From assembly GCF_054482525.1 (NCBI RefSeq), contig NZ_CM137006.1: DNA of 64,000 bases, one strand, 5' to 3'. Shown piece by piece: positions 2,180-29,278 of the stretch (positions within the stretch are counted from its first letter, which is position 1; each line of letters opens with the position of its first letter). The translations under genes were made by a program, and so were the position numbers. A model generated the notes under the pieces. It saw only the letters and a program-made list of their open reading frames with translations. It did no database searches and was not told the DNA's origin.

Positions 2180-2244
2180 TGATCTTACCCAGCAATAGTG
2201 GACACGCGGCTAAGTGAGTAAACTCTCAGTCAGAGGTGACTCAC

Positions 2245-5459: not shown

Positions 5460-5460
5460 C

Positions 5461-6599: not shown

Positions 6600-6618
6600 G
6601 GCGAGGCGGGGAAAGCAC
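6600..6618. other. cos: P2 cos site (19-nt cohesive-end sequence)
   Basis: GGCGAGGCGGGGAAAGCAC matches the P2 cohesive end as I recall it, located between the accessory slot and the portal gene Q as in P2. Confidence 0.8.
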
Positions 6619-6787
6619 TGCGCGCTGGCGGTGGTGCTGATTTTATTTTTTCAGCGTCTGAGCGCGTCGTGATGGCGTTTGGATTGTTCGCCGGGGCGTT
6701 GGTGTGTATGCGGGCTGTTTTGTGCGGTGGTGAGCGTGTGAGGGCGTGATGACGGGGTGTAAAAAAGCCGCCCGCAGGCGGCGATGT

Positions 6788-7822
6788 TCAGCCGTTGTCA
6801 GTGTCCAGTGAGTAGTTTTTAAAGCGGATGACCTCCTGACCGAGCCAGCCGTTTATCTCGCGGATCCTGTCCTGTAACGGGATAAGCTCATTGCGGACAA
6901 AGACCTTTGCCACTTTCTCAATATCACCCAGCGACCCGACGTTCTCCGGCTTGCCGCCCATCAACTGAAAAGGGATGCGGTGCGCGTCCAGCAGGTCTGC
7001 GGCGCTGGCTTTTTTGATATTAAAAAAATCGTCCTTCGTTGCCACTTCACTGAGCGGGATAATTTTAATACCGTCGGCTTTTCCCTGTGGGGCGTAGAGA
7101 AACAGGTTTTTAAAGTTGTTGCGGCCTTTCGACTTCACCATGTTTTCGCGAAGCATTTCGATATCGTTGCGATCCTGCACGGCATCGGTGACGTACATGA
7201 TGTATCCGGCATGTGCGCCGTTTTCGTAATACTTGCGGCGGAACAGCGTGGCCGACTCATTCAGCCAGGCAGAGTTAAGGGCGCTGAGATATTCCGGCAG
7301 GCCGTACAGCTCCTGATTGATATCCGGCTCCAGCAGGTGAAACACGGAGCCGGGCGCGAAAGGTGTCGGCTCGTTGAAGGATGGCACCCACCAGTAAACA
7401 TCCTCCTCCACGCCACGGCGGGTATATTTTGCCGGTGAGGTTTCCAGTCTGATGACCTTACCGGTAGTGCTGTAGCGCTTTTCCAGAAACGCATTACCGA
7501 ACACCAGAAAATCCAGCACAAAGCGGCTGAAATCCTGCTGGGAAAGCCACGGGTGCGGGATAAACGTTGAGGCCAGAATATTACGTTTGACGTAAATCGG
7601 TGAGCTGTGATGCACGGCAGCACGCAGGCTTTTTGCCAGACCGGTAAAGCTGACCGGTGGCTCATACCATCTGCCGTTACTGATGCACTCGACGTAATCC
7701 AGAATATCACGGCGGTCGAGTACCGGCACCGGCTCACCAAAGGTGAATGCCTCCATTTTCGGGGCGCTGGCAGTCATTGTTTTCACCGCTGGCTGCGGTG
7801 TTTTCCCTTTTTTCTTACTCAT
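6788..7822 (-). CDS. Q: P2-like portal protein gpQ (344 aa)
   Basis: 344-aa ORF MSKKKGKTPQPAVKT..., size and position (leftward, next to cos) match P2 Q. Confidence 0.92.
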   Translation of the reverse strand: MSKKKGKTPQPAVKTMTASAPKMEAFTFGEPVPVLDRRDILDYVECISNGRWYEPPVSFTGLAKSLRAAVHHSSPIYVKRNILASTFIPHPWLSQQDFSRFVLDFLVFGNAFLEKRYSTTGKVIRLETSPAKYTRRGVEEDVYWWVPSFNEPTPFAPGSVFHLLEPDINQELYGLPEYLSALNSAWLNESATLFRRKYYENGAHAGYIMYVTDAVQDRNDIEMLRENMVKSKGRNNFKNLFLYAPQGKADGIKIIPLSEVATKDDFFNIKKASAADLLDAHRIPFQLMGGKPENVGSLGDIEKVAKVFVRNELIPLQDRIREINGWLGQEVIRFKNYSLDTDNG

Positions 7823-9594
7823 CAGTAAAACTCCAGAATGGTGGATGTCAGCGGGGTGCTGATACCGGCGGTGAGTGGCTCATTTAACAGGGCGTGCATG
7901 GTCGCCCAGGCGAGGTCGGCGTGGCTGGCTTCCTCGCTGCGGCTGGCCTCATAGGTGGCGCTGCGTCCGCTGCTGGTCATGGTCTTGCGGATAGCCATAA
8001 ACGAGCTGGTGATGTCGGTGGCGCTGACGTCATATTCCAGACAGCCACGGCGAATAACGTCTTTTGCCTTGAGCACCATTGCGGTTTTCATTTCCGGCGT
8101 GTAGCGGATATCGCGTGCGGCGGGATAGAACGAGCGAACGAGCTGGAACACGCCGACACCGAGGCCGGTGGCATCAATTCCGATGTATTCGACGTTGTAT
8201 TTTTCGGTGAGTTTGCGGATGGATTCAGCCTGGGTGGCAAAGTCCATGCCTTTCCACTGGTGACGCTCAAGTATTCTGAATTTGCCACCGGCCACCACCG
8301 GCGGTGCCAGCACCACGCATCCGGCACTGTCGCCACGGTGTGACGGGTCGTAACCAATCCAGACCGGGCGGGAGCCGAACGGATTCGCGGCAAACGGCGC
8401 ATAGTCTTCCCATTCTTCCAGCGTGTCGACCATGCAGCGTTGCAGCTCCTCGAACGGGAACACCGACGCCTTGTCGTCAACAAATTCACACATGAACAGG
8501 TTTTTAAAATCGTCGGCGCTGTTTTCGCGTTTAAGCTGCTCAATGTCGAACAGCGTGCAGCCACCTTTCAGGGCGTCCTCAATGGTGACAATCTGCCGCC
8601 ACTGACCGTCCGCACAGAGAAGCCCACCGGCAAGAGCGTTATGACTGACGTCGATTTCCACGCGTTCGGCGGCGCTGGCGCGTCCCCGGTTGAACAGTTC
8701 ACCCGACCAGAACGGGTAGGCGTCGTGCGCCAGCGTGGACGGGGTGGAGAAATAGGTCGAGCGCAGGTGACTCTGTGAGGCCATACCTGATGCCACCTTA
8801 CGCAGTACCTGAAAATTCGGTATCCAGAAAATCTCGTCGACGTACAGGTCGCCGTTATGGCTCTGCGCGGTGTTGGAGTTGGTGCCGAGAAAAATCAGTT
8901 TTGCGCCGTTATTGCCCAGGACAATCGGGTCACCGGTCAGGTCAACGTCAACCAGCCGGGCAAAGGCGATGATGTATTCGCGGAACACATACGCCTGCGT
9001 TTTACTGGCCGACAGAAAAATCTGGTTATGACCGGTTTTCAGGGCGCGCAGCAGCGCCTCGCGGGAAAAATAAAACGTCGCGCCAATCTGGCGGGATTTC
9101 AGGATATCGCGGATGCGGTGCTCAAGCCCGGCGCGATACCAGTGCAACTGATATTCGAAAGACTGCTCAAAGAAAATCTGCTCCAGCTTTTCGATAGCCT
9201 CGTCACTGAAAAAATTCTTTTTCGGTTTGCGCCGCCCGCCTTTGTTGCGGTTAGCGATGTTCGGATTAAGGTCTGCCTCGTTGCCGGTCTGGCTGTAGCG
9301 GTTTACCCGTGCCAGTCGTTCAATCTGGCGTCCGAGCAGGTCAATTTCCTTGAAGTCACCGCCGGTTTTCTGCGGTTTGATGATGAGCTGGGTCAGCCGC
9401 GCTTCCAGACTCATTTCGACACGGCTGATGGGGGCAACGCTGTCCCAGCCGTCGCGCTGTTTCCAGCTCTGCACCGTCGGGCGTTTCATCTGCAACATGG
9501 CGGCAATCTGCGGCACGGAAAACCCCTGCCAGTACAGCAGCGCCGCCTGACGACGCGGGTCGTGCAAAAGAGTGGTGTCTGTGGTGATGGTCAT
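7822..9594 (-). CDS. P: P2-like terminase large (ATPase) subunit gpP (590 aa)
   Basis: Start taken at MTITTDTT (ORF track begins 10 codons upstream); 590 aa as P2 gpP; divergent from O. Confidence 0.9.
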   Translation of the reverse strand: MTITTDTTLLHDPRRQAALLYWQGFSVPQIAAMLQMKRPTVQSWKQRDGWDSVAPISRVEMSLEARLTQLIIKPQKTGGDFKEIDLLGRQIERLARVNRYSQTGNEADLNPNIANRNKGGRRKPKKNFFSDEAIEKLEQIFFEQSFEYQLHWYRAGLEHRIRDILKSRQIGATFYFSREALLRALKTGHNQIFLSASKTQAYVFREYIIAFARLVDVDLTGDPIVLGNNGAKLIFLGTNSNTAQSHNGDLYVDEIFWIPNFQVLRKVASGMASQSHLRSTYFSTPSTLAHDAYPFWSGELFNRGRASAAERVEIDVSHNALAGGLLCADGQWRQIVTIEDALKGGCTLFDIEQLKRENSADDFKNLFMCEFVDDKASVFPFEELQRCMVDTLEEWEDYAPFAANPFGSRPVWIGYDPSHRGDSAGCVVLAPPVVAGGKFRILERHQWKGMDFATQAESIRKLTEKYNVEYIGIDATGLGVGVFQLVRSFYPAARDIRYTPEMKTAMVLKAKDVIRRGCLEYDVSATDITSSFMAIRKTMTSSGRSATYEASRSEEASHADLAWATMHALLNEPLTAGISTPLTSTILEFY

Positions 9595-9767
9595 GAATAC
9601 CTCGCCGTGATGAATACACGGCAAGGCTACTGAGTCGCGCCCCGCGATTCGCTAAGGTGCTGTTGTGTCAGTGATAAGCCATCCGGGACTGATGGCGGAG
9701 GATGCGCATCGTCGGGAAACTGATGCCGACATGTGACTCCTCTAATCACTATTCAGGACTCCTGACA

Positions 9768-10622
9768 ATGGCAAAAAAAGTCTCAAAATTCTTTCGTATC
9801 GGCGTTGAGGGTGACACCTGTGACGGGCGTGTCATCAGTGCGCAGGATATTCAGGAAATGGCCGAAACCTTTGACCCGCGAGTCTATGGTTGCCGCATTA
9901 ACCTGGAACATCTGCGCGGCATCCTGCCTGACGGTATTTTTAAGCGTTATGGCGATGTGGTCGAACTGAAGGCCGAAAAGATTGACGATGATTCGGCGCT
10001 GAAAGGCAAATGGGCGCTGTTTGCGAAAATCACCCCGACCGATGACCTTATCGCGATGAACAAGGCCGCGCAGAAGGTCTACACCTCAATGGAAATTCAG
10101 CCGAACTTTGCCAACACCGGCAAATGTTATCTGGTGGGTCTGGCCGTCACCGATGACCCGGCAAGCCTCGGCACGGAATACCTGGAATTCTGCCGCACGG
10201 CAAAACACAACCCCCTGAACCGCTTCAAATTAAGCCCTGAAAACCTGATTTCAGTGGCAACGCCCGTTGAGCTGGAATTTGAAGACCTGCCTGAAACCGT
10301 GTTCACCGCCCTGACCGAAAAGGTGAAGTCCATTTTTGGCCGCAAACAGGCCAGCGATGACGCCCGTCTGAATGACGTGCATGAAGCGGTGACCGCTGTT
10401 GCTGAACATGTGCAGGAAAAACTGAGCGCCACTGAGCAGCGCCTCGCTGAGATGGAAACCGCTTTTTCCGCACTTAAGCAGGATGTGACTGACAGGGCGG
10501 ATGAAACCAGCCAGGCATTCACCCGCCTGAAAAACAGTCTCGACCACACCGAAAGTCTGACCCAGCAGCGCCGCAGCAAGGCCACCGGTGGTGGCGGTGA
10601 CGCCCTGATGACGAACTGCTGA
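9768..10622 (+). CDS. O: P2-like capsid scaffolding protein gpO (284 aa)
   Basis: Start at MAKKVSKFF (ATG 9768); length 284 aa as P2 gpO. Confidence 0.9.
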   Translation: MAKKVSKFFRIGVEGDTCDGRVISAQDIQEMAETFDPRVYGCRINLEHLRGILPDGIFKRYGDVVELKAEKIDDDSALKGKWALFAKITPTDDLIAMNKAAQKVYTSMEIQPNFANTGKCYLVGLAVTDDPASLGTEYLEFCRTAKHNPLNRFKLSPENLISVATPVELEFEDLPETVFTALTEKVKSIFGRKQASDDARLNDVHEAVTAVAEHVQEKLSATEQRLAEMETAFSALKQDVTDRADETSQAFTRLKNSLDHTESLTQQRRSKATGGGGDALMTNC

Positions 10623-10680
10623 CCGGCGTCAGTCAGTCCGGGAAAACCTTCACGATTAACCCTTAATTTCAGGAAAAACT

Positions 10681-11754
10681 ATGCGCCAGGAAACCCGCTT
10701 TAAATTTAATGCCTACCTGTCCCGTGTTGCCGAACTGAACGGCATCGACGCCGGTGATGTGTCGAAAAAATTCACCGTTGAACCGTCGGTCACCCAGACC
10801 CTGATGAACACCATGCAGGAGTCCTCTGACTTTCTGACCCGCATCAACATTGTGCCGGTCAGCGAAATGAAAGGGGAAAAAATTGGCATCGGTGTCACCG
10901 GCTCCATCGCCAGCACCACCGACACCGCCGGTGGCACCGAGCGTCAGCCGAAGGACTTCTCGAAGCTGGCGTCAAACAAGTACGAATGCGACCAGATTAA
11001 CTTCGATTTTTATATCCGCTACAAAACGCTGGACCTGTGGGCGCGTTATCAGGATTTCCAGCTCCGTGTCCGTAACGCCATTATCAAACGCCAGTCCCTT
11101 GATTTAATCATGGCCGGTTTTAACGGCGTGAGGCGTGCCGAAACCTCTGACCGCAGCAGCAATCCGATGCTGCAGGATGTGGCGGTCGGCTGGCTGCAGA
11201 AATACCGCAATGAAGCCCCGGCGCGCGTGATGAGCAAGGTCACTGACGAGGAAGGGCACACCACCTCTGAGGTTATCCGCGTGGGTAAGGGCGGTGATTA
11301 TGCCAGCCTTGACGCACTGGTGATGGATGCGACCAACAACCTGATTGAGCCGTGGTATCAGGAAGACCCTGACCTTGTGGTGATTGTGGGACGTCAGCTA
11401 CTGGCGGACAAGTATTTTCCCATCGTCAACAAGGAGCAGGACAACAGCGAAATGCTGGCCGCTGACGTCATCATCAGCCAGAAACGCATCGGTAACCTGC
11501 CGGCGGTACGCGTCCCGTACTTCCCGGCGGATGCGATGCTCATCACAAAGCTGGAAAACCTGTCCATCTACTACATGGATGACAGCCATCGCCGCGTGAT
11601 TGAGGAAAACCCGAAACTCGACCGCGTGGAGAACTACGAGTCAATGAACATTGATTACGTGGTGGAAGACTACGCCGCCGGTTGTCTGGTGGAAAAAATT
11701 AAGGTCGGTGATTTCTCCACACTGGCTAAAGCGACCGCAGAGCCGGGAGCGTAA
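10681..11754 (+). CDS. N: P2-like major capsid protein gpN (357 aa)
   Basis: 357-aa ORF MRQETRFKFNAYLSRVAELNG...; size and order match P2 N. Confidence 0.93.
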   Translation: MRQETRFKFNAYLSRVAELNGIDAGDVSKKFTVEPSVTQTLMNTMQESSDFLTRINIVPVSEMKGEKIGIGVTGSIASTTDTAGGTERQPKDFSKLASNKYECDQINFDFYIRYKTLDLWARYQDFQLRVRNAIIKRQSLDLIMAGFNGVRRAETSDRSSNPMLQDVAVGWLQKYRNEAPARVMSKVTDEEGHTTSEVIRVGKGGDYASLDALVMDATNNLIEPWYQEDPDLVVIVGRQLLADKYFPIVNKEQDNSEMLAADVIISQKRIGNLPAVRVPYFPADAMLITKLENLSIYYMDDSHRRVIEENPKLDRVENYESMNIDYVVEDYAAGCLVEKIKVGDFSTLAKATAEPGA

Positions 11755-11757
11755 CCG

Positions 11758-12501
11758 ATGACGAGTCCCGCACAGCGCCACATGATGCGGGTCTCGGCAG
11801 CGATGACCGCGCAGCGGGAAGCCGCCCCGCTGCGACATGCAACTGTCTATGAGCAGATGCTGGTTAAGCTCGCCGCAGACCAGCGCACACTGAAAGCGAT
11901 TTATTCAAAAGAGCTGAAGGCCGCGAAAAAACGCGAACTGCTGCCGTTCTGGTTGCCGTGGGTGAACGGCGTGCTGGAGCAGGGCAAAGGTGCACAGGAT
12001 GACATTCTGATGACGGTCATGCTGTGGCGTCTGGATACCGGCGATATTGCCGGTGCGCTGGAGATTGCCCGTTATGCCCTGAAGTACGGTCTGACCATGC
12101 CGGGTAAACACCGCCGTACCCCGCCGTACATGTTCACCGAGGAGGTAGCGCTTGCGGCCATGCGTGCCCACGCTGCCGGTGAGTCTGTGGATACCCGCCT
12201 GCTGACGGAGACCCTTGAACTGACCGCCACGGCTGACATGCCTGATGAAGTGCGCGCAAAGCTGCACAAAATCACCGGTCTGTTTCTGCGTGACGGTGGT
12301 GATGCCGCCGGTGCGCTGGCTCACCTGCAACGTGCGACACAGCTCGACTGTCAGGCAGGTGTCAAAAAAGAGATTGAACGACTGGAGCGGGAGCTGAAAC
12401 CGAAGCCGGAGCCGCAGCCCAAAGCGGCCACCCGCGCCCCGCGTAAGACCCGGAGCGTGACACCGGCAAAACGTGGACGCCCGAAAAAGAAAGCCAGTTA
12501 A
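11758..12501 (+). CDS. M: P2-like terminase small/endonuclease subunit gpM (247 aa)
   Basis: 247-aa ORF following N; basic C-terminus; P2 gene order. Confidence 0.9.
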   Translation: MTSPAQRHMMRVSAAMTAQREAAPLRHATVYEQMLVKLAADQRTLKAIYSKELKAAKKRELLPFWLPWVNGVLEQGKGAQDDILMTVMLWRLDTGDIAGALEIARYALKYGLTMPGKHRRTPPYMFTEEVALAAMRAHAAGESVDTRLLTETLELTATADMPDEVRAKLHKITGLFLRDGGDAAGALAHLQRATQLDCQAGVKKEIERLERELKPKPEPQPKAATRAPRKTRSVTPAKRGRPKKKAS

Positions 12502-12600
12502 CAACCGAATGCGCCCCGCGCCAGGGCGGCACGCCGGTCAGTGTGGGTGAATCACCTGACACTGTACCGGCGTCCACCGCCCGACTTTTCTGAGGTAGTC

Positions 12601-13110
12601 ATGATGACGCTGATTATTCCGCGAAAGGAGGCTCCCGTGTCCGGTGAGGGTACGGTGGTCATCCCGCAACCGGCAGGCGACGAGCCGGTGATTAAAAACA
12701 CGTTCTTTTTTCCCGATATCGACCCGAAGCGCGTCCGGGAACGTATGCGCCTTGAGCAGACCGTCGCCCCCGCCCGTCTGCGTGAGGCCATCAAGTCAGG
12801 CATGGCGGAGACGAATGCGGAGCTGTACGAGTACCGCGAACAGAAAATTGCCGCCGGTTTTACGCGTCTGGCTGACGTCCCGGCAGACGATATCGACGGT
12901 GAAAGCATCAAGGTTTTTTACTACGAGCGCGCCGTGTGTGCGATGGCGACCGCGTCGCTTTATGAGCGTTATCGCGGCGTGGATGCCAGTGCGAAAGGCG
13001 ACAAGAAGGCCGACAGCATTGACAGCACCATTGATGAACTGTGGCGGGATATGCGCTGGGCGGTGGCGCGTATCCAGGACAAGCCGCGCTGCATCGTGAG
13101 TCAAATCTGA
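12601..13110 (+). CDS. L: P2-like head completion/stabilisation protein gpL (169 aa)
   Basis: Start at MMTLIIPRKEAP (ATG 12601); 169 aa. Confidence 0.88.
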   Translation: MMTLIIPRKEAPVSGEGTVVIPQPAGDEPVIKNTFFFPDIDPKRVRERMRLEQTVAPARLREAIKSGMAETNAELYEYREQKIAAGFTRLADVPADDIDGESIKVFYYERAVCAMATASLYERYRGVDASAKGDKKADSIDSTIDELWRDMRWAVARIQDKPRCIVSQI

Positions 13111-13313
13111 TGAAGACCTTTGCGCTACAGGGCGACACGCTCGACGCCATTTGTGTCCGGTATTACGGGCGCACTGAGGGCGTGGTCGAGGCCGTGCTCG
13201 CCGCAAATCCGGGACTGGCTGAACTGGGCGTGGTGCTGCCACACGGCACCGCCGTCGAACTGCCCGACGTTCAGACCGCGCCCGTGGCTGAAACTGTCAA
13301 TCTGTGGGAGTAA
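13110..13313 (+). CDS. X: P2-like tail protein gpX (67 aa)
   Basis: MKTFALQGDTLDAICVRYYGRTEG...; ATG overlaps the L stop (TGATG). Confidence 0.85.
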   Translation: MKTFALQGDTLDAICVRYYGRTEGVVEAVLAANPGLAELGVVLPHGTAVELPDVQTAPVAETVNLWE

Positions 13314-13316
13314 CGC

Positions 13317-13598
13317 ATGACAGCAGAAGAAAAAAGCGTCCTGTCGCTTTTCATGATTGGGGTGCTGATTGTTGTCGGCAAGGTGCTTGCCGGTGGTGAA
13401 CCCATCACCCCGCGTCTGTTTATCGGGCGCATGTTGCTCGGTGGTTTTGTCTCGATGGTTGCCGGTGTTGTTCTGGTGCAGTTTCCTGACCTGTCACTGC
13501 CTGCGGTGTGCGGCATCGGCTCCATGCTGGGTATCGCCGGTTATCAGGTGATTGAGATTGCCATTCAGCGCCGTTTTAAGGGCAGGGGGAAACCGTAA
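13317..13598 (+). CDS. Y: P2-like holin gpY (93 aa)
   Basis: 93-aa ORF with hydrophobic transmembrane segments and basic C-terminus, upstream of endolysin. Confidence 0.88.
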   Translation: MTAEEKSVLSLFMIGVLIVVGKVLAGGEPITPRLFIGRMLLGGFVSMVAGVVLVQFPDLSLPAVCGIGSMLGIAGYQVIEIAIQRRFKGRGKP

Positions 13599-14095
13599 TG
13601 CCGGTAATTAACACGCATCAGAATATCGCCGCCTTTCTCGACATGCTGGCCGTGTCCGAAGGGACGGCGAATCATCCGCTGACGAAAAACCGGGGCTATG
13701 ACGTGATAGTCACCGGACTGGACGGGAAGCCGGAAATTTTCACCGACTACAGTGACCACCCGTTCGCGCATGGCCGACCGGCGAAGGTGTTTAACCGTCG
13801 TGGTGAAAAATCCACGGCCTCCGGTCGCTATCAGCAGCTTTACCTGTTCTGGCCGCACTACCGTAAACAGCTTGCCCTGCCTGATTTCAGTCCGTTGTCA
13901 CAGGACAGACTCGCCATTCAGTTGATCCGCGAACGCGGTGCACTGGATGACATCCGGGCGGGACGCATTGAGCGCGCCATTTCACGCTGTCGCAATATCT
14001 GGGCGTCCCTGCCGGGTGCCGGTTACGGTCAGCGTGAGCATTCACTGGAAAAACTGGTCACCGTCTGGCGTACCGCTGGCGGCGTACCGGCTTAA
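13598..14095 (+). CDS. K: P2-like endolysin/lysozyme gpK (165 aa)
   Basis: 165-aa ORF MPVINTHQNIAAFLDMLAVSEGT...; position after holin. Confidence 0.9.
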   Translation: MPVINTHQNIAAFLDMLAVSEGTANHPLTKNRGYDVIVTGLDGKPEIFTDYSDHPFAHGRPAKVFNRRGEKSTASGRYQQLYLFWPHYRKQLALPDFSPLSQDRLAIQLIRERGALDDIRAGRIERAISRCRNIWASLPGAGYGQREHSLEKLVTVWRTAGGVPA

Positions 14096-14109
14096 ACGGA
14101 GTAAACACC

Positions 14110-14535
14110 ATGAAGAAATTATCCCTTTCACTGATGCTGAACGTGTCGCTGGCACTGATGCCGGCACTGTCCCTGATTTACCCGCAGAGCGTGGCCGTCA
14201 ATTTTGTCGCCGCCTGGGCGATTCTGGCGACGGTTATCTGTGTGGTTGCCGGTGGTGTCGGCGTGTATGCCACTGAGTATGTGCTGGAACGCTACGGGCG
14301 GGAGCTGCCGCCGGAATCGCTGGCCGTGAAGATTGTCGCGTCGCTGTTTTTGCAGCCGGTGCCGTGGCGCAGACGGGCGGCGGCTCTGGTGGTGATGGTG
14401 GCGACGTTTATCTCGCTGGTCGCTGCCGGGTGGATTTTTACCGCGCTGATTTACCTCGTGGCGTCGGTGTTCTTCCGGCTGATACGTACGGCCTGCCGTC
14501 AGTGTTTTGAGGAGCGGCAACCATGTCAAGGCTGA
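14110..14535 (+). CDS. lysA: P2-like lysis accessory protein LysA (141 aa, membrane protein)
   Basis: 141-aa hydrophobic ORF after K. Confidence 0.85.
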   Translation: MKKLSLSLMLNVSLALMPALSLIYPQSVAVNFVAAWAILATVICVVAGGVGVYATEYVLERYGRELPPESLAVKIVASLFLQPVPWRRRAAALVVMVATFISLVAAGWIFTALIYLVASVFFRLIRTACRQCFEERQPCQG

Positions 14536-14948
14536 TGATTGTACTGATTGTGTTGTTATCGCTGGCGGTGGCGGGTCTGTTTCTGGTGAAACACAAAAAT
14601 GCCAGCCTGCGCACCTCACTGGACAGGGCGAACAATGTCGCCAGCGGGCAGCAGACGACCATCACCATGCTGAAAAACCAGCTTCATGTTGCCCTTACCA
14701 GGGCAGACAAAAACGAGCTGGCGCAGGTGGCACTGCGTCAGGAGCTGGAGAACGCCGCGAAGCGTGAAGCACAGCGCGAGAAAACCATCACGAGGTTACT
14801 TAATGAAAACGAAGATTTTCGCCGCTGGTACGGCGCTGACCTGCCTGATGCTGTGCGCCGGTTGCACCAGCGCCCCGCCTGCACCGACGCCAGTGATTGT
14901 CCACAACGCCTGCCCGAAAGTGAGCCTTTGCCCGATGCCGGGCAGTGA
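14523..14948 (+). CDS. lysB: P2-like LysB (Rz-like inner-membrane spanin, 141 aa)
   Basis: 141-aa ORF with N-terminal TM segment and coiled-coil-like body; overlaps lysA end. Confidence 0.85.
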   Translation: MSRLMIVLIVLLSLAVAGLFLVKHKNASLRTSLDRANNVASGQQTTITMLKNQLHVALTRADKNELAQVALRQELENAAKREAQREKTITRLLNENEDFRRWYGADLPDAVRRLHQRPACTDASDCPQRLPESEPLPDAGQ

Positions 14949-15093
14949 CCCGCAGACGAACGGCGATTTAAGTGCCGATATCCGGCAGCTTGAGAACGCG
15001 CTGGCGCGCTGTGCCAGCCAGGTAAAAATGATTAAACACTGTCAGGACGAAAACGATGCTCAAACCCGACAGCCTGCGCAGGGCGCTGACTGA
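14803..15093 (+). CDS. lysC: P2-like LysC (Rz1-like outer-membrane lipoprotein spanin, 96 aa) embedded in +1 frame of lysB
   Basis: MKTKIFAAGTALTCLMLCAGC lipoprotein signal with lipobox LCAGC; Pro-rich; starts inside lysB and extends beyond it. Confidence 0.8.
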   Translation: MKTKIFAAGTALTCLMLCAGCTSAPPAPTPVIVHNACPKVSLCPMPGSDPQTNGDLSADIRQLENALARCASQVKMIKHCQDENDAQTRQPAQGAD

Positions 15094-15523
15094 TGCCGTC
15101 ACGGTACTGAAAACTAACCCCGATATGCTGCGGATATTCGTGGATAACGGGAGTATTGCCTCCACACTGGCGACGTCGCTGTCATTCGAAAAGCGTTACA
15201 CGCTCAATGTCATTGTGACCGACTTTACCGGTGATTTTGACCTGCTCATTGTGCCGGTGCTGGCGTGGCTGCGGGAAAATCAGCCCGACATCATGACCAC
15301 CGACGAAGGCCAGAAAAAGGGCTTCACGTTTTATGCAGACATCAACAATGACAGCAGCTTTGATATCAGTATCAGCCTGATGCTGACCGAGCGCACGCTG
15401 GTCAGTGAGGTTGACGGTGCGCTGCATGTGAAGAATATCCCGGAACCCCCGCTGCCGGAGCCGGTCACCCGCCCGATGGAGCTGTATATCAATGGCGAAC
15501 TGGTGAGCAAGTGGGATGAATGA
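15056..15523 (+). CDS. R: P2-like tail completion protein gpR (155 aa)
   Basis: 155-aa ORF; size and order match P2 R. Confidence 0.88.
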   Translation: MLKPDSLRRALTDAVTVLKTNPDMLRIFVDNGSIASTLATSLSFEKRYTLNVIVTDFTGDFDLLIVPVLAWLRENQPDIMTTDEGQKKGFTFYADINNDSSFDISISLMLTERTLVSEVDGALHVKNIPEPPLPEPVTRPMELYINGELVSKWDE

Positions 15524-15968
15524 GTTTAAGCGTTTTGAAGACCGGCTGACCGGACTTATTGAATCGCTGTCACCGTCAGGGCGTCGGCGACTGAGTGCCG
15601 AACTGGCGAAACGTCTGCGGCAGAGTCAGCAGCGTCGGGTGATGGCTCAGAAAGCCCCGGACGGCACACCCTACGCGCCACGCCAGCAGCAGAGCGCCAG
15701 AAAAAAGACCGGTCGTGTTAAGCGAAAAATGTTTGCGAAACTTATCACCAGTCGTTTTTTGCATATCCGCGCCAGCCCGGAACAGGCATCAATGGAATTT
15801 TACGGCGGGAAGTCACCGAAAATCGCCAGCGTGCATCAGTTCGGCCTGTCGGAAGAAACCCGGAAAGACGGTAAGAAAATTGATTATCCGGCGCGTCCTC
15901 TGCTCGGCTTTACCGGTGAGGATGTGCAGATGATTGAAGAGATTATCCTGGCTCACCTTGAGCGTTAG
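15516..15968 (+). CDS. S: P2-like tail completion protein gpS (150 aa)
   Basis: 150-aa ORF overlapping R end; P2 order. Confidence 0.88.
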   Translation: MNEFKRFEDRLTGLIESLSPSGRRRLSAELAKRLRQSQQRRVMAQKAPDGTPYAPRQQQSARKKTGRVKRKMFAKLITSRFLHIRASPEQASMEFYGGKSPKIASVHQFGLSEETRKDGKKIDYPARPLLGFTGEDVQMIEEIILAHLER

Positions 15969-15998
15969 TTTTATCCAGGCAGAGGCTGATGCGCAATT

Positions 15999-16033
15999 AA
16001 ACATTGAGCGGCCATGCTGGTCGCTCAATGTTT
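15999..16033. terminator. Bidirectional stem-loop between S (+) and the reverse-strand moron
   Basis: 12-bp perfect inverted repeat aaacattgagcg...cgctcaatgttt with 11-nt loop, between convergent genes. Confidence 0.45.
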
Positions 16034-16039
16034 AGAGGT

Positions 16040-16825
16040 TTATGAGTGATTTTTATTTGATGCTTTGTATTCTACAACCTTCTTATTGGCGTAAAGGAAT
16101 TTTGTATATGACAGGAATATAACCAGACCTGAAATGAAATAGATGAGGGATATTATTAATAATGCTTTTTTTTGGCTGTTATTATCTTTAATCTCCTGAC
16201 TTAACCATTCCGAGTCCTCCTCGTTTAGCTGTAAGAGATTATTGCAGGCGATCTCAGGAAGTGTGTCTTTTATAAATACGTTTCGTAGCCTCTTGCAATC
16301 GGCAAGGCTATAAGTTTTATTGAATTCAACTGTTTTATTGTTGAAGGATAAAAGAACTTTGTCACTATAAACATAGTACATCATATTTTTATATGGTATG
16401 CCTATGGCATCTCTTACTATAGCGGATTGTTTGTTGTGTATATAACATGCGAAGAGAATATAAATAATGCTGGACAGAATTACAATTATTGTTTTAATTA
16501 TGTGTGGTGGTTTTGTTATGTCACCCCAGAAGCGAGTAAGAAAAAAATACGATGTTTTTAGTTTTCCATCAATCAGCCCCTGCTGTATCATTCTCACATC
16601 TTCGATGCCTGATACATTGATTCCGTTAATTATTTTAAATAGTTGAATGTCGCGCCATTTTTTGTCGAGCATTTTTAACTTTCTGTCTGAATACTCAAAA
16701 TTGAAATGATGTGCAATAAACCTCATAAGATTACTTTTACCAAAGGTAACAAATGTTAATGCTATTAATAAAAATAGATACAAAGAGATAAACCACCACG
16801 CATTAGTCACATTATCACTGAACAT
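16040..16825 (-). CDS. Moron: predicted membrane protein (261 aa, about three hydrophobic segments) in the S-V intergenic slot
   Basis: Opposite strand to the late operons; strongly AT-rich, Lys/Asn/Ile-rich; hydrophobic segments WWFISLYLFLLIALTFVTF, IIKTIIVILSSIIYILFACYI, ALLIISLIYFISGLVIFLSY. Confidence 0.7.
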   Translation of the reverse strand: MFSDNVTNAWWFISLYLFLLIALTFVTFGKSNLMRFIAHHFNFEYSDRKLKMLDKKWRDIQLFKIINGINVSGIEDVRMIQQGLIDGKLKTSYFFLTRFWGDITKPPHIIKTIIVILSSIIYILFACYIHNKQSAIVRDAIGIPYKNMMYYVYSDKVLLSFNNKTVEFNKTYSLADCKRLRNVFIKDTLPEIACNNLLQLNEEDSEWLSQEIKDNNSQKKALLIISLIYFISGLVIFLSYTKFLYANKKVVEYKASNKNHS

Positions 16826-16908
16826 TACGCTCTCCTCGAATGTTGTATGGTCGTTCTACAAATGAATCCAGATAGCATAACTTTTATATATTGTGCAATC
16901 TCACACGC

Positions 16909-17544
16909 ATGAACACTCTCGCAAATACTCAGGAACTCGCGCGCGCACTGCGCAACATGATCCGCACCGGCCTTGTCGTCGAAACCGACCTTAATGCCGG
17001 TCGCTGCCGTGTGCAGACCGGCGGCATGTGCACCGACTGGCTTCAGTGGCTGACCCATCGCGCCGGGCGTTCGCGCACATGGTGGGCACCTTCCGTGGGG
17101 GAACAGGTGCTGATTCTGGCCGTGGGTGGTGAACTCGACACGGCGTTCGTTCTGCCGGGGATTTATTCCGGCGATAACCCCGCGCCGTCTGCGTCGGCGG
17201 ATGCCCTGCATATCCGTTTCCCTGACGGGGCGGTGATTGAGTATGAACCTGAAACCAGCGCGCTCACGGTAAGCGGAGTTAAAACGGCCAGCGTGACGGC
17301 TTCTGATTCTGTTACTGCCACGGTGCCGGTGGTCATGGTGAAAGCATCAACCCGCATCACCCTGGACACGCCGGAGGTGGTCTGCACCAACAGGCTGATT
17401 ACCGGCACGCTGGAAGTACAGAAGGGCGGGACGATGCGCGGCAACATTGAACACACCGGCGGTGAACTCTCATCAAACGGTAAGGTACTGCATACCCATA
17501 AACACCCCGGCGACAGCGGCGGCACAACAGGGAGTCCTCTATGA
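16909..17544 (+). CDS. V: P2-like baseplate spike protein gpV (211 aa)
   Basis: Start at MNTLANTQELARALRNMIRTG (ATG 16909); 211 aa. Confidence 0.9.
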   Translation: MNTLANTQELARALRNMIRTGLVVETDLNAGRCRVQTGGMCTDWLQWLTHRAGRSRTWWAPSVGEQVLILAVGGELDTAFVLPGIYSGDNPAPSASADALHIRFPDGAVIEYEPETSALTVSGVKTASVTASDSVTATVPVVMVKASTRITLDTPEVVCTNRLITGTLEVQKGGTMRGNIEHTGGELSSNGKVLHTHKHPGDSGGTTGSPL

Positions 17545-17888
17545 CAGCGCGTTATCTCGGAATGAATCGCAGTGATGGCCTGACTGTCACTGACCTTGAG
17601 CATATCAGCCAGAGTATCGGCGATATCCTGCGCACACCGGTCGGCTCACGGGTGATGCGTCGTGATTACGGCTCGTTGCTGGCATCAATGATTGACCAGC
17701 CGCAGACCCCGGCGCTTGAGTTGCAGATTAAGGTCGCCTGTTACATGGCGGTGCTGAAATGGGAACCCCGCGTCACCCTGTCATCCGTCACCACTGAGCG
17801 CAGTTTTGACGGGCGAATGACGGTCACGTTAACCGGCCAGCACAACGACACCGGCCAGCCACTTTCGTTAACCATCCCTGTGAGTTGA
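17541..17888 (+). CDS. W: P2-like baseplate protein gpW (115 aa)
   Basis: 115-aa ORF, overlapping V stop. Confidence 0.9.
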   Translation: MTARYLGMNRSDGLTVTDLEHISQSIGDILRTPVGSRVMRRDYGSLLASMIDQPQTPALELQIKVACYMAVLKWEPRVTLSSVTTERSFDGRMTVTLTGQHNDTGQPLSLTIPVS

Positions 17889-17892
17889 AACC

Positions 17893-18801
17893 ATGCCGAT
17901 TATCGACCTGAACCAGCTACCCGCACCGGATGTGGTCGAGGAGCTGGACTTTGAAACCATTCTTGCCGAACGCAAGGCGACACTGATTTCCCTTTACCCG
18001 GAAGACCAGCAGGAGGCGGTCGCCCGTACCCTGACGCTGGAATCCGAGCCTCTCGTCAAACTGCTGGAGGAAAATGCTTATCGTGAGCTTATCTGGCGTC
18101 AGCGTGTGAATGAGGCCGCACGGGCGGTGATGCTGGCCTGTGCCGCCGGTAATGACCTTGATGTGATTGGTGCCAATTACAACACCACGCGCCTGATTAT
18201 CACTCCGGCAGATGATTCGACTATCCCGCCGACACCGGCAGTGATGGAATCTGACACCGATTATCGTCTGCGTATTCAGCAGGCGTTTGAGGGCTTAAGC
18301 GTCGCCGGGTCGGTGGGGGCCTATCAGTATCATGGTCGCAGTGCTGACGGGCGTGTCGCGGATATCTCTGTCACCAGTCCGTCTCCGGCCTGCGTCACCA
18401 TCTCCGTGCTGTCACGTGAAAATAACGGCGTCGCATCCGAAGACCTGCTGGCCGTGGTGCGTAACGCCCTTAATGGCGAGGACGTCAGGCCGGTGGCCGA
18501 CCGCGTGACCGTGCAGTCTGCCGCCATCGTTGAATACCAGATAAACGCCACGCTGTATCTTTACCCTGGTCCCGAAAGCGAACCCATTCGCGCTGCCGCC
18601 GTGAAAAAACTGGAAGCGTATATCACGGCACAGCACCGGCTGGGGCGCGACATCCGTCTGTCTGCCATTTATGCCGCTTTGCATGTGGAAGGCGTGCAGC
18701 GTGTCGAACTGGCTGCACCGCTGGCCGACATCGTGCTCAACAGTACGCAGGCGTCTTTCTGTACCGAATACAGCGTCGTGACCGGAGGCTCGGATGAGTG
18801 A
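17893..18801 (+). CDS. J: P2-like baseplate assembly protein gpJ (302 aa)
   Basis: 302-aa ORF; P2 order. Confidence 0.9.
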   Translation: MPIIDLNQLPAPDVVEELDFETILAERKATLISLYPEDQQEAVARTLTLESEPLVKLLEENAYRELIWRQRVNEAARAVMLACAAGNDLDVIGANYNTTRLIITPADDSTIPPTPAVMESDTDYRLRIQQAFEGLSVAGSVGAYQYHGRSADGRVADISVTSPSPACVTISVLSRENNGVASEDLLAVVRNALNGEDVRPVADRVTVQSAAIVEYQINATLYLYPGPESEPIRAAAVKKLEAYITAQHRLGRDIRLSAIYAALHVEGVQRVELAAPLADIVLNSTQASFCTEYSVVTGGSDE

Positions 18802-19405
18802 TTCGCGACTGCTGCCGACCGGCTCATCGCCGCTTGAAGTCGCCGCCGCAAAAGCCTGTGCGGAAATTGAAAAAACGCCGGTCAGTATTCGTGAGCTGTG
18901 GAACCCGGATACCTGTCCGGCAAATCTGCTGCCGTGGCTGGCGTGGTCATTTTCGGTTGACCGCTGGGATGATAAGTGGCCGGAAGCGACAAAACGCGCT
19001 GTTATCCGCGATGCGTATTTCATTCACTGCCATAAGGGCACTATAGGCGCAATCCGGCGTGTGGTGGAGCCGCTCGGCTATCTGATTGAGGTGAGGGAGT
19101 GGTGGCAGCTCAACGAGGAGCCGGGGACGTTCCGCATCGTTGTTGGCGTGCTTGAGCAGGGTATTACCGAGGAAATGTATCAGGAGCTGGAGCGCCTCGT
19201 TGCTGATGCAAAACCGGCAAGCCGCCATCTGACGGGACTGGCTATCAGTTTAAGTACAACCGGCAACATTTTTGCCAGTGCGGGATGCTATCACGGTGAC
19301 GCCCTGACGGTTTATCCCTACACCCCGGAGGCCATTATTGTCGGAGGGGATTATTTCCCGGCCTCGGCCATTCATTTAATTGATAACCTGAGAGTAAACG
19401 CATGA
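18794..19405 (+). CDS. I: P2-like baseplate protein gpI
   Basis: ORF overlapping J end and H start; exact start codon uncertain. Confidence 0.8.
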   Translation: MSDSRLLPTGSSPLEVAAAKACAEIEKTPVSIRELWNPDTCPANLLPWLAWSFSVDRWDDKWPEATKRAVIRDAYFIHCHKGTIGAIRRVVEPLGYLIEVREWWQLNEEPGTFRIVVGVLEQGITEEMYQELERLVADAKPASRHLTGLAISLSTTGNIFASAGCYHGDALTVYPYTPEAIIVGGDYFPASAIHLIDNLRVNA

Positions 19406-20700
19406 CAGTGAAATACTACGCCATTCTGACTAATCAGGGCGCAGCACGGCTGGCTAACGCGACGATGCTCGGCAGTAAGCTGAATCTGACGCAAATGGCC
19501 GTTGGTGATGCGAATGGTGTCTTGCCGACACCAGACCCGGCACAGACAAAACTGATTAATCAGAAACGCATCGCGCCGCTGAATCTTCTGAGTGTTGACC
19601 CGAACAACCAGAGCCAGATTATTGCGGAGCAAATCATCCCTGAGAACGAGGGCGGATTCTGGATCCGTGAGATTGGGCTTTATGATGATGAAGGCGTACT
19701 CATTGCGGTGGCGAACTGCCCGGAAACGTACAAACCGCAGTTACAGGAAGGCAGCGGTCGTACCCAGACTATCCGCATGATTCTGGTTGTCACGAATACC
19801 GAAGCCATCACGCTGAAAATCGACCCGTCGGTGGTACTGGCGACCCGTAAATACGTGGATGATAAAGTCCTGGAATTAAAGCTGTATGTGGATGACCAGA
19901 TGAGAAACCACATTGCCGCACAGGATCCTCATACCCAGTATGCACAGAAACATAATCCGACATTTACCGGAGAACCAAAAGCGCCGACGCCTGCCGCAGG
20001 AAATAACACCACGCGGATTGCGACCACTGCGTTTGTACAGGCCGCTATTACCGCTCTGATTAACGGTGCCCCTGACACGCTGGACACACTGAAAGAAATT
20101 GCCGCAGCTATCAACAATGACCCGAAATTCAGCACCACCATTAACAATGCGCTGTCAGGTAAGCAGCCACTGGATGAGACGCTGACTCATTTGAGTGGAA
20201 AGGATGTTGCCGGTCTTCTCGCATACCTTGGTTTGGGAGAAGGCTCTGCATTGCCGGTTGGTGTGCCTGTTCCGTGGCCTTCAGCCACTCCGCCAACGGG
20301 GTGGCTAAAATGTAACGGAGCAGTATTTTCTTCTGAAAAGTACCCAAATCTGGCAAAGGCTTACCCAACATTAAAATTACCAGATTTACGCGGTGAATTT
20401 ATTCGTGGCTGGGATGATGGGCGCGGGATTGACTCTGGTCGTAACTTATTATCTGCACAGAATGATGCAATTCAGAATATTGTTGGTTCTTTTGGGCGTA
20501 CCCAGCTTTTTAGAGACGTACTTAGTTCAGGGCCATTTAGTCAACATGGGCAAGTATTATCTACAGGTCTAAAGGAAGCCGAAATTATTGAGGGTTATGG
20601 CGCTTATAACTGGACATTCGACGCATCTCGCTCAGTTCGCACAGCATCTGAAACCCGCTCCCGTAACATCGCCTTTAATTATATTGTGAGGGCTGCATGA
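19402..20700 (+). CDS. H: Tail fibre protein gpH (432 aa): P2-like constant N-terminus fused to the currently expressed variable C-terminal cassette
   Basis: N-terminus MTVKYYAILTNQGAARLANA...; C-terminal region (WPSATPPTGWLKCNGAVFSSEKYPNLAKAY...LPDLRGEFIRGW) is tail-collar-like; inversion crossover site lies at codons ~276-280. Confidence 0.88.
   Translation: MTVKYYAILTNQGAARLANATMLGSKLNLTQMAVGDANGVLPTPDPAQTKLINQKRIAPLNLLSVDPNNQSQIIAEQIIPENEGGFWIREIGLYDDEGVLIAVANCPETYKPQLQEGSGRTQTIRMILVVTNTEAITLKIDPSVVLATRKYVDDKVLELKLYVDDQMRNHIAAQDPHTQYAQKHNPTFTGEPKAPTPAAGNNTTRIATTAFVQAAITALINGAPDTLDTLKEIAAAINNDPKFSTTINNALSGKQPLDETLTHLSGKDVAGLLAYLGLGEGSALPVGVPVPWPSATPPTGWLKCNGAVFSSEKYPNLAKAYPTLKLPDLRGEFIRGWDDGRGIDSGRNLLSAQNDAIQNIVGSFGRTQLFRDVLSSGPFSQHGQVLSTGLKEAEIIEGYGAYNWTFDASRSVRTASETRSRNIAFNYIVRAA
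20228..20242. repeat. Left inversion crossover site of tail-fibre segment (inside H)
   Basis: TTGGTTTGGGAGAAG; perfect inverted copy at 22160-22174; weak resemblance to gix/hix half-sites. Confidence 0.6.
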
Positions 20701-21302
20701 TAAGTAAAGCTGTATTAAATAATGAACTCATCGCCACAAAGGCCGGAGACATTACCGTTTATAATTATGATGGTGAAACACGGGAATATATTTCCACATC
20801 AACTGAATATCTTGCTGTGGGTGTCGGTATCCCGGCATGTTCCTGTTTAGATGCTCCTGGCTCATATAAAGCTGGTTATGCAATTTGCCGTTCTGCAGAT
20901 TTTAACTCATGGGAATATGTGCCAGACCATCGCGGTGAAATCGTCTATAGCACCGAAACAGGAGAATCAAAAGAAATCACAGTTCCGGGTGATTACCCTG
21001 AAAATACAACCACTATCGCCCCGTTAACGTCATACGATAAATGGGATGGTGAGAAATGGGTGACCGATACTGAGGCACAGCATAACGCCGCAGTAGACGC
21101 GGCAGAAGTACGGCGCCAGTCACTGATTGATGCTGCTATGGCTTCCATTAGTCTGATTCAGCTGAAATTGCAGGCCGGGCGGAAGCTGACGCAGGCAGAA
21201 ACAACCCGGCTTAACGCTGTGCTGGATTACATTGACGCGGTGACTGCAACAGATACCAGCACCGCGCCGGATGTCATCTGGCCTGAACTACCGGAGGCGT
21301 AG
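20697..21302 (+). CDS. G: Tail fibre assembly chaperone gpG (Tfa), currently expressed orientation
   Basis: 201-aa ORF directly after H; C-terminal ...TATDTSTAPDVIWPELPEA typical of Tfa proteins. Confidence 0.85.
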   Translation: MISKAVLNNELIATKAGDITVYNYDGETREYISTSTEYLAVGVGIPACSCLDAPGSYKAGYAICRSADFNSWEYVPDHRGEIVYSTETGESKEITVPGDYPENTTTIAPLTSYDKWDGEKWVTDTEAQHNAAVDAAEVRRQSLIDAAMASISLIQLKLQAGRKLTQAETTRLNAVLDYIDAVTATDTSTAPDVIWPELPEA

Positions 21303-21717
21303 GCCATTCAATATCTGGAGCACTGGCGGTATCAACCAGTTCCAGTGCGTCCAGATAATCCAGCCATAAATTATATTGTTCCAGCTCGTAACCTTTCAGA
21401 CGACCAATAGCAGCTTTGCCAGGCCACTGATGGGTATTGATGTAGGTATTGACTTCTGAAACCAAAGATATCTTTTTCATTTCAGCCGCCAGCATCTCAT
21501 CCTCTTTTGAAGGCGGCGGGGAATTAATCCATATTGGCCGTCCTGAACTGTCAGCGCCAATTTCTTTCCCTTCTGGATGCAGCCCAAGAAATTGCTCATA
21601 TGTTTCTCTGGTAATTTCAATAACATCATCAGGAAGCGTTCCCGCATCCTCATATTCTGGAAACAATTCTTGCAGATAAAAACTTTTACTTGCGGGTGAA
21701 AAGAATACTGAGTTCAT
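21274..21717 (-). CDS. Alternative tail fibre assembly chaperone (Tfa') for the inverted orientation
   Basis: 147-aa reverse-strand ORF; C-terminus ...DTASAPDIEWPTPPVVQAR parallels gpG; convergent with G and overlapping its 3' end. Confidence 0.75.
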   Translation of the reverse strand: MNSVFFSPASKSFYLQELFPEYEDAGTLPDDVIEITRETYEQFLGLHPEGKEIGADSSGRPIWINSPPPSKEDEMLAAEMKKISLVSEVNTYINTHQWPGKAAIGRLKGYELEQYNLWLDYLDALELVDTASAPDIEWPTPPVVQAR

Positions 21718-21719
21718 TC

Positions 21720-22159
21720 TTACCGTCCAATGATTAACGCTGAGACGCTGGTATCTGAAGGAAAGGCTGCATTCAGTGGTTTGTCGACTTTGAACACAAT
21801 CGTATTATTCCCCCTGACAGCGGCAAAAGAACAAACCGCCGTCGCGTATGAACCTGTAATATTACTGGATACACCACCATAAGCTGTTGTTGATACCAGA
21901 GGGATAACGCCCAGCACCTTATTAGGAAATACAAAGGGCAATGTGGCTGTGGCAATATAAGACTTATTAGAACCTGTAATGGCATAAGCATTATCAGTCA
22001 TTCCATTCATCGCCACTGGACCGCTTATACTTACAGTAACCATCTGAATGATTAGCCCGTCAGGTTGACGAATCACAAAATTTCCATTGCCACCAGTAAC
22101 CGTCCAGAAAGACATATCAGGGATTTGGTTTTCCCCGTTGCCCACATTTCGTTTTGCCG
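21720..22159 (-). CDS. Alternative (currently silent) tail-fibre C-terminal cassette, promoterless, expressed only after inversion
   Basis: Reverse-strand reading frame continuous from the right crossover site; shares the GLGE junction frame with H; no independent start expected. Confidence 0.65.
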
Positions 22160-22174
22160 CTTCTCCCAAACCAA
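22160..22174. repeat. Right inversion crossover site of tail-fibre segment
   Basis: CTTCTCCCAAACCAA, exact reverse complement of 20228-20242. Confidence 0.6.
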
Positions 22175-22241
22175 CGTTTAAGAAAATGCAGAGATTACGG
22201 CTAACTGGCATCATCCCCGGTTTTTATTCAGGGGATCCATC

Positions 22242-22835
22242 ATGCTTATTGGCTATGTCCGCGTGTCAACAAATGACCAGAATACGGAATTGCAGCGTAA
22301 CGCGCTGGAGTGTGCAGGATGTGAGCTTATTTTTGAGGATAAAATCAGCGGCACGAAGTCCGACCGACCGGGACTGAAAAAACTGCTCAGGACATTATCG
22401 GAGGGGGATACACTGGTGGTCTGGAAGCTGGACCGGCTGGGGCGTAGTATGCGGCATCTGGTCATTCTGGTTGAGGAACTGCGCGAACGCGGCGTTAATT
22501 TTCGCAGCCTGACGGATGCTATTGATACCAGCACGCCGATGGGGCGTTTTTTCTTTCATGTGATGGGTGCCCTGGCTGAAATGGAGCGAGAACTCATTGT
22601 CGAGAGGACACGCGCCGGACTGGAAGCGGCCAGAGCCAAAGGTCGTATTGGTGGCAGACGACCGAAACTCACCGCGAGTGAGTGGGAGCAGGCCGGGCGT
22701 TTGCTGGCTGCAGGGGAGTCACGTCAACGCGTGGCACTGATTTTTGATATTGGTCTGTCCACGCTCTATAAAAAATTTCCCTCATCAGCGACAAAGAATA
22801 AATTGTGTCATCCCTTAGCCAACCGGGACAAATAG
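22242..22835 (+). CDS. Serine recombinase, DNA invertase of the Pin/Gin/Hin/Cin family (197 aa)
   Basis: N-terminal catalytic domain MLIGYVRVSTNDQNTELQRNAL (active-site Ser in YVRVST), C-terminal HTH; positioned just outside the right crossover site. Confidence 0.9.
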   Translation: MLIGYVRVSTNDQNTELQRNALECAGCELIFEDKISGTKSDRPGLKKLLRTLSEGDTLVVWKLDRLGRSMRHLVILVEELRERGVNFRSLTDAIDTSTPMGRFFFHVMGALAEMERELIVERTRAGLEAARAKGRIGGRRPKLTASEWEQAGRLLAAGESRQRVALIFDIGLSTLYKKFPSSATKNKLCHPLANRDK

Positions 22836-22894
22836 CCTGACATCTCCGGCACAACTGAAAATATCACTCACCCATTAACCACGGAGTTAAACGG

Positions 22895-24085: not shown

Positions 24086-24097
24086 GGAGCCTGACCG

Positions 24098-24616: not shown

Positions 24617-24672
24617 TTTTCATCCGGTCAGCCTGACTGACCGGTTAACCCCGATTCAGAAGTGAGAAAACC

Positions 24673-27540: not shown

Positions 27541-27554
27541 GGAGGTGACGAAAA

Positions 27555-29197: not shown

Positions 29198-29278
29198 TGT
29201 CTATTATTTATCTGTTTGTTTTATAAGGATAAATTAACTAAAATGGCACCATCAACAAAACCGGAAGAGGTGCTCGCG

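Follow-up and report, generated by a model that had tools for sequence, protein, structure and literature searches.

The window analysed here is a stretch of 64,000 nucleotides (nt) of NCBI RefSeq assembly GCF_054482525.1 (contig NZ_CM137006.1), and the subject of this analysis is lysC, a small open reading frame (ORF) that lies between the lysis gene lysB and the tail-completion gene R and overlaps both of them. The ORF runs on the plus strand from an ATG at 14803 to a TGA at 15091-15093 and encodes 96 amino acids (aa), beginning MKTKIFAAGTALTCLMLCAGCTSAPPAPTPVIVHNACPKV. It is in frame +1 relative to lysB, with which it has 146 nt in common, and it extends 145 nt past the lysB stop; the original prediction, which had placed a lipoprotein ORF at 14803-15093 in this frame and with this extension, is exact to the base. 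Gene R (15056-15523; match to Pfam P2_Phage_GpR, 1.4e-45) begins before lysC has ended. The coordinates of lysB, lysC and R modulo 3 are 0, 1 and 2, and all three forward frames are thus used in turn (Table 1). We are highly confident that this ORF is lysC of a P2-like (Peduovirus) Escherichia coli prophage, and that it encodes the outer-membrane subunit (o-spanin) of a two-component spanin in which LysB, the inner-membrane subunit (i-spanin), is the partner.

This assignment is carried first by the comparison with phage P2. The 571-nt lysB-lysC segment is 96.7% identical in DNA to P2 7922-8492; LysC has 93 of its 96 residues in common with P2 LysC (AAM83596; 97%), the substitutions from P2 to the window being R2K, V11A and P34H, and LysB has 138 of 141 (98%; V9I, A31T and M130L). 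The P2 record (AF063097; lysB 7922-8347, lysC 8202-8492) has the same geometry down to its details: 141 and 96 codons, the +1 frame, the 146-nt overlap, the 145-nt extension and the 38-nt overlap with R, as well as the Shine-Dalgarno sequence GAGGT, the lipobox LCAGC, four periplasmic cysteines in LysC and two cysteines in LysB, and the gene order Y-K-lysA-lysB/C-R-S-orf30. P2 differs from the window by the three substitutions in each protein and by nothing structural, which bears out the likeness to P2 lysB/lysC claimed in the original prediction. The LysC protein is 100% identical to a product of Yersinia phage vB_YpM_117, and its H34 variant also occurs in phage fiAA91-ss. The segment matches 83 phage records, mostly of Peduovirus, and close homologues are annotated as lysB/lysC in 1,608 of 5,426 complete E. 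coli genomes.

The family models give the same answer. LysC matches the NCBIfam equivalog NF038368 P2_Rz1 ('Rz1-like lysis system protein LysC') with 128.9 bits against a cut-off of 27, over residues 4-88, and Pfam PF23793 LysC with 63.5 bits against 27 (E=1.7e-17). LysB reaches 175.2 bits against a cut-off of 92.75 with the equivalog TIGR03495 phage_LysB ('Rz-like lysis system protein LysB'), and both PHROG 456 (LysC) and PHROG 89 (LysB, 6e-61) are described as 'Rz-like spanin'. LysB also has the build of an i-spanin, that is, of an adjacent type II inner-membrane protein with a single N-terminal transmembrane segment and a helical periplasmic domain: its hydropathy is 2.5-3.4 over residues 1-21, followed by a polar, charged periplasmic part, and the hydrophobic fraction at heptad-like a/d positions is 0.68 against a background of 0.36, by a crude test.

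The 'overlapped' class of two-component spanins has P2 LysB/LysC as its type example (Kongari et al. 2018, PMC6139136), and PMC3091744 too describes the arrangement for P2. The window locus belongs to this class, as lysC opens inside lysB in another frame and closes beyond the lysB stop. It is not of the 'embedded' class of lambda Rz/Rz1 (PMC6139136), in which the o-spanin gene is wholly contained in the i-spanin gene, since lysC ends at 15093 and lysB at 14948. The original prediction had used both terms, and only the 'overlapped' of its text can be kept, not the 'embedded' of its title; a RefSeq note on lysC words the same point as 'substantially overlapping although not fully embedded'.

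The homologous locus was taken from 12 further phages of Escherichia, Salmonella, Erwinia, Klebsiella, Yersinia, Burkholderia, Pseudomonas and Aeromonas, with LysC identities from 92% down to about 37%. A script recovered a lipoprotein ORF at 12 of 13 loci, which represent seven host genera; its frame was +1 relative to lysB each time and, when the conserved start is used, it begins 146-164 nt before the lysB stop and ends 112-157 nt after it. In the remaining locus, that of phiCTX, the script found no lipoprotein ORF, though the annotated orf12.5 (VTMNPIASGLTSLCLMLLAGC) has the leader ...LCLMLLAGC; the same heuristic mis-extended the lysB start in KL3 and FLC10. M1, G9, C14, L15 and the lipidation cysteine, Cys21, are invariant in the alignment of 13 LysC homologues, and so are four periplasmic cysteines across the aligned proteins (37, 43, 70 and 80 in window numbering). 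The 186-like, Fels-2-like and Burkholderia P2-like proteins (Eganvirus, Kp4849-2, KL3, KS14, phiX216 and phiCTX orf12.5) share with the window the overlapped +1 layout, the cysteine at 21, the four periplasmic cysteines and an N-G-D-L motif. The differences lie in the lipobox, which in distant relatives is a canonical T-L-S-G-C or L-C-A-C aligned at Cys21 and in the clade of P2 and 186, the window included, is L-C-A-G-C or L-C-V-G-C with a cysteine at -3, and in LysB, the cysteines of which are missing in distant members.

The N-terminus of LysC reads MKTKIFAAGTALTCLMLCAG/CTSAPPAPTPV, the slash standing before Cys21. Lysines 2 and 4 make up a basic n-region, hydropathy is 1.7-2.1 over residues 6-21, and the segment closes with G20-C21, so that the elements looked for in an o-spanin (basic n-region, hydrophobic core, small residue at -1, invariant cysteine at +1) are all present. 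The mature protein would have 76 aa and contains 9 prolines, 8 of them within its first 30 residues. It starts C-T-S, with threonine and serine at +2 and +3; the lack of aspartate at +2 is what outer-membrane sorting calls for under the +2 rule of the Lol pathway, which is established in E. coli. Such signals are scarce in the window: its frames that open with ATG and reach 60 aa number 664, and a relaxed lipoprotein-signal pattern is found at only 4 loci among them, lysC being one. A second of these four, a 379-aa ORF at 58768 with a canonical leader, resembles a host outer-membrane lipoprotein, presumably one like Wza.

Several observations weigh against the spanin assignment and are best considered together. 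LysC does not match the canonical lipobox, either as the consensus [LVI][ASTVI][GAS]C or as PROSITE PS51257, the strict pattern of which we checked with our own implementation. Two further cysteines, C14 and C18, lie within the signal peptide, and for P2 LysC a second LipoP cleavage site is reported after residue 17 (SpaninDB, PMC6139136). Sequence searches of the PDB with LysB and LysC gave no meaningful match and no solved structure of either family. Essentially all mechanistic work on spanins has been done on lambda Rz/Rz1 (PMC6139136), and in older records the lysB/lysC homologues carry no other label than 'regulation of lysis' or 'lysis regulatory protein'.

The lipobox is the most direct of these points. 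The strict pattern and the consensus both fail because position -3 is a cysteine. The original prediction had named a lipobox, LCAGC, in a proline-rich protein; the string (residues 17-21) and the nine prolines are there, whereas the lipobox is not a canonical one. Residues 12-33 are identical in P2 LysC and window LysC, and SpaninDB gives for the P2 protein LipoP cleavage sites at 20 and 17 together with 'No hit by Prosite' (supplement of PMC6139136). Experiments have validated one deviant lipobox among spanins, AWAC (Kongari et al. 2018, PMC6139136). We therefore rejected the failure of the strict PROSITE pattern as a refutation of the lipoprotein, given that the cysteine at -3 is its sole cause, that P2 LysC fails likewise with a positive LipoP result, and that Cys21 aligns with the canonical lipoboxes of relatives. 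The deviation at -3 is a property of the accepted family, and so does not exclude membership of it. The absence of a lipoprotein signal on prediction, which the original prediction had named as its refutation, thus needs care, as the outcome depends on the method: strict PROSITE fails, LipoP is positive for P2. On present evidence the signal of LysC appears to be real but non-canonical at -3.

The start codon can be placed with the same comparisons. Two upstream starts were considered and rejected, the ATG at 14686, which gives the longest mechanical ORF (135 aa), and the GTG at 14764, which the script chose for both the window and P2; the conserved n-region MKTK and the GAGGT point to 14803 in both cases. 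This GAGGT is the predicted Shine-Dalgarno sequence of P2 LysC in SpaninDB (supplement of PMC6139136), and GAGG is kept 5' of lysC in most relatives. In Wphi and EtG a TGA stands immediately 5' of the conserved lysC ATG and closes the upstream frame. A start further downstream is the choice of RefSeq for the lysC of E. coli 19KM1776 (626-871 of the compared segment), which is called at Met16 as a gene of 246 nt (81 aa), 45 nt downstream of the start in the P2 record, and is left with no usable signal peptide. The corresponding proposal for the window is that the LysC product is shorter than given here, being either initiated at Met16 (14848) or cut by signal peptidase II before Cys18 instead of Cys21. 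For the latter speak the LipoP site after residue 17 and the cysteine at -3, which makes the Cys21 lipobox atypical. We regard this proposal as very unlikely in either form. Translation from Met16 would leave a five-residue leader, MLCAG, which lacks a charged n-region and a hydrophobic core and is therefore incompatible with export, whereas the first 15 residues are kept from genus to genus (M1, G9, C14 and L15 without exception), NF038368 aligns from residue 4, and GAGGT lies 6 nt 5' of 14803. As for the cleavage, only Cys21 aligns with the L-S-G-C and L-C-A-C of relatives, most of which have leucine at the position of Cys18, and the leucine at -1 of Cys18 violates the [GAS] rule. The TGA in Wphi and EtG, the spacing of GAGGT, the NCBIfam alignment and the shortness of the Met16 leader together make the ATG at 14803 the best-supported start, as judged from sequence comparison.

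The locus can also be set against lambda Rz/Rz1, which has the same functional design: Rz is a type II protein of the inner membrane with a helical domain in the periplasm, Rz1 is a small outer-membrane lipoprotein, rich in proline and read from the +1 frame, and the two genes likewise come after those of the holin and the endolysin. In lambda, Rz1 lies wholly inside Rz, whereas lysC of the window runs 145 nt past lysB; and LysC is the longer protein, with 76 aa in its mature form, about 12% proline and four periplasmic cysteines, against 40 aa and about 25% proline in mature Rz1. No lambda-family model is among the reported Pfam, PHROG and NCBIfam matches. The lysB and lysC genes of P2 together reportedly complement lambda Rz/Rz1 null mutants (Markov et al. 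2004).

Taking the lambda model, the P2 literature and homology together, we would expect the pair to act as follows. LysB and LysC would both be made late in infection from the transcript of the O operon. LysC would be exported by Sec, lipidated on Cys21 and cut by signal peptidase II, and then, having no aspartate at +2, would be sorted by the Lol pathway to the inner leaflet of the outer membrane. LysB would be anchored in the inner membrane by residues ~4-22, with its helical domain in the periplasm, and the periplasmic domain of LysC would bind the C-terminal part of LysB, and the resulting complex would reach across the periplasm through the meshwork of the peptidoglycan. Once the holin Y has let the endolysin K degrade the murein, the complexes would be free to change conformation and would merge the inner membrane with the outer one. 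The fusion model itself rests on spheroplast and genetic experiments with lambda Rz/Rz1 (PMC6139136).

A different function is suggested by the original P2 annotation, namely that LysC and LysB control when lysis occurs by modulating the action of the holin or the endolysin, LysC not being a structural subunit of membrane fusion. In the GenBank record of P2, lysB is annotated as 'nonessential; affects timing of lysis' and lysC as 'non-essential; regulation of lysis', and many derived records read 'lysis regulatory protein'. Spanin null mutants (Rz/Rz1) show delayed or incomplete lysis under laboratory conditions, and this mild phenotype accounts for the old 'timing' label. With an inner-membrane anchor and a helical periplasmic domain in one protein, and a signal for sorting to the outer membrane in the other, a small lipoprotein, the pair has the topology of a spanin, and both SpaninDB and RefSeq now class LysB/LysC as such; we consider the regulatory role a shade less probable even than a shortened LysC.

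That lysC is a gene at all is recorded in its pattern of nucleotide divergence. When P2-like phages are compared with 186-like ones, nucleotide identity amounts to 0.78-0.82 in the overlap, 0.58-0.62 in the part that is lysB only and 0.70-0.71 in the part that is lysC only. Divergence at the third codon position is 0.57 in lysB, 0.49 in lysC and 0.45 in R where these are single-coding, and falls to 0.24-0.25 in the overlap, in both frames. This suppression marks the overlap as dual-coding, with both frames under purifying selection. The 145-nt part of lysC beyond lysB shows divergences of 0.22, 0.17 and 0.49 at the three codon positions, typical of coding sequence. Between the window and P2, the overlap has 4 differences, and every one of them changes an amino acid in one of the two frames and is synonymous in the second. 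The opposing notion takes the +1 ORF for a frame left open by chance, with only lysB real and a short untranslated spacer before R. It can appeal to ORF length being uninformative in this G+C-rich region, where alternative-frame ORFs of 100-160 aa are many, and to several phage records in which lysC is unannotated (e.g. L-413C and vB_YenM_31.17). It is excluded, to the point where we give it next to no credence, by this dual-coding signature and by the conservation of frame, start and cysteine pattern down to 35-45% aa identity in phages of Burkholderia, Pseudomonas and Aeromonas; the scores with the curated equivalog and Pfam models also lie far over the thresholds, and the missing annotations reflect a known bias of gene callers against overlapped genes (PMC6139136).

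The gene stands in the context expected of P2 lysC. By BLAST of the whole P2 genome, P2 28034-30213, 1-12629 and 17572-24382 (the last ending at the attP core) correspond to window 1-2180, 6600-19230 and 22815-29625, all at ~97% identity. These three collinear blocks identify the first 29.6 kb of the window as a P2-like prophage; what follows is E. coli chromosome. At the junction, yegQ, yegP, ogrK and baeR of E. coli are matched at 99.8%, the right end of the prophage (P2 attP core, ~29625) abutting yegQ, yegP and baeR (~29600-31800) beside an ogr/ogrK-type gene. Y, K, lysA, lysB and lysC are present in P2 order and at P2 lengths, with no internal stops and with 93-100% identity to P2, and the lysis cassette is thus complete, as had been predicted. 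For lysA, the P2 record AF063097 carries the note 'nonessential; affects timing of lysis'.

Table 1. Features of the lysis region, in window coordinates.
Feature	Coordinates	Strand	Basis
Y, holin, 93 aa	13317..13598	+	Pfam Phage_holin_3_2, 2.6e-42; 92/93 identical to P2 gpY
K, endolysin, 165 aa	13598..14095	+	PHROG 90 endolysin, 1.4e-70; 165/165 identical to P2 gpK
lysA, membrane protein affecting lysis timing, 141 aa	14110..14535	+	131/141 identical to P2 LysA; NCBIfam NF038378
lysB, i-spanin, 141 aa	14523..14948	+	P2 identity; TIGR03495; PHROG 89
Shine-Dalgarno-like GAGGT, 6 nt 5' of the lysC ATG	14792..14796	+	sequence
lysC, o-spanin (Rz1-like outer-membrane lipoprotein precursor)	14803..15093	+	ORF; P2 identity; NF038368; PF23793; PHROG 456
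Predicted lipoprotein signal peptide, residues 1-20 (MKTKIFAAGTALTCLMLCAG), plus Cys21 codon (14863-14865)	14803..14865	+	
Dual-coding segment, 146 nt: lysB C-terminus (frame 0) and lysC signal peptide/proline-rich N-terminus (frame +1)	14803..14948	+	
Hairpin GCTGGCGC-GCT-GTGCCAGC, inside lysC	15000..15018	+	maps to P2 feature 8399-8417
Overlap of lysC 3' end and tail-completion gene R, 38 nt, R in frame +2	15056..15093	+	same layout in P2 record

A hairpin inside lysC corresponds to a feature that the P2 record AF063097 describes as 'putative transcription attenuator; O operon' (Table 1). Its predicted stem has 8 bp, lengthened by an A-to-G difference from P2; the hairpin is indistinguishable from shuffled sequence (z -0.79), has no U-tract, and the terminator scan gave nothing at this position. 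One might speculate that the cysteine at -3, together with C14 and C18, allows alternative processing at Cys18 or Cys21 or a thiol-dependent maturation of the o-spanin, and that with the hairpin these features tune the ratio of spanin to the tail-completion proteins encoded downstream. We hold this to be very improbable, and nothing in the data requires alternative processing, thiol control or the tuning of a ratio.

Other parts of the prophage depart further from P2. At the position of P2 orf91, directly after the homology to gene A of P2 ends, lies an IS3-family element (2236-3407, plus strand) with an HTH_Tnp_1 orfA (2236-2544) and an rve integrase-core orfB (2541-3407). It is followed, at the tin/old moron hotspot of P2 beside cos, by a two-gene cassette of 32-35% G+C (3792-6462, plus strand). 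The first gene encodes a 555-aa AAA_15/AAA_21 ATPase, the best PADLOC match of which is NsnB (1.9e-52), with further matches to HEC-03B, PDC-M55A and AriA; the second (5461-6462, 333 aa) has no Pfam, PADLOC or NCBIfam match. The only match of the cassette in the phage database is the 'P2-EC5' tin/old-region fragment AM157364.1 (88.6%), with two hypothetical proteins. The cassette looks like a candidate anti-phage defence pair, and it is probably of more interest than lysC itself.

The tail-fibre region (19402-22835) is also unlike that of P2. An H-like fibre gene (432 aa) is accompanied by a gene for tail-fibre assembly (20697-21302), and the opposite strand carries another assembly gene (21274-21717) and a fibre C-terminus (21720-22214). 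The region also holds a serine recombinase/invertase (22242-22835; Resolvase and HTH_7) and 27-nt inverted repeats at 20216-20242 and 22160-22186. This layout resembles an invertible host-range switch of the Gin/Cin type, and it stands in the place of P2 Z/fun. Between S and V, on the minus strand, lies a homologue of P2 orf30 (16040-16825, 261 aa, 36% G+C), identical to P2 Orf30 at 220 of 261 residues, with the differences concentrated at the N-terminus and with no match in Pfam, PADLOC or NCBIfam.

The lysC gene of a P2-type prophage is already known and ordinary, and this copy adds nothing new to spanin biology. Its use lies in annotation, as overlapped o-spanin genes are often mis-called: the RefSeq homologue of E. 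coli starts 15 codons too late, and three 186-like phage records carry only a 52-codon stub after the lysB stop (1033-1191 of the compared segments), where the full +1 ORF with its lipobox is present. The coordinates of the original prediction are therefore better than those of some database entries. The +1 overlap, a compact way of coding, came down from the P2 lineage and is not peculiar to this locus. With its five-gene lysis module intact, the prophage plausibly retains the ability to lyse its host.

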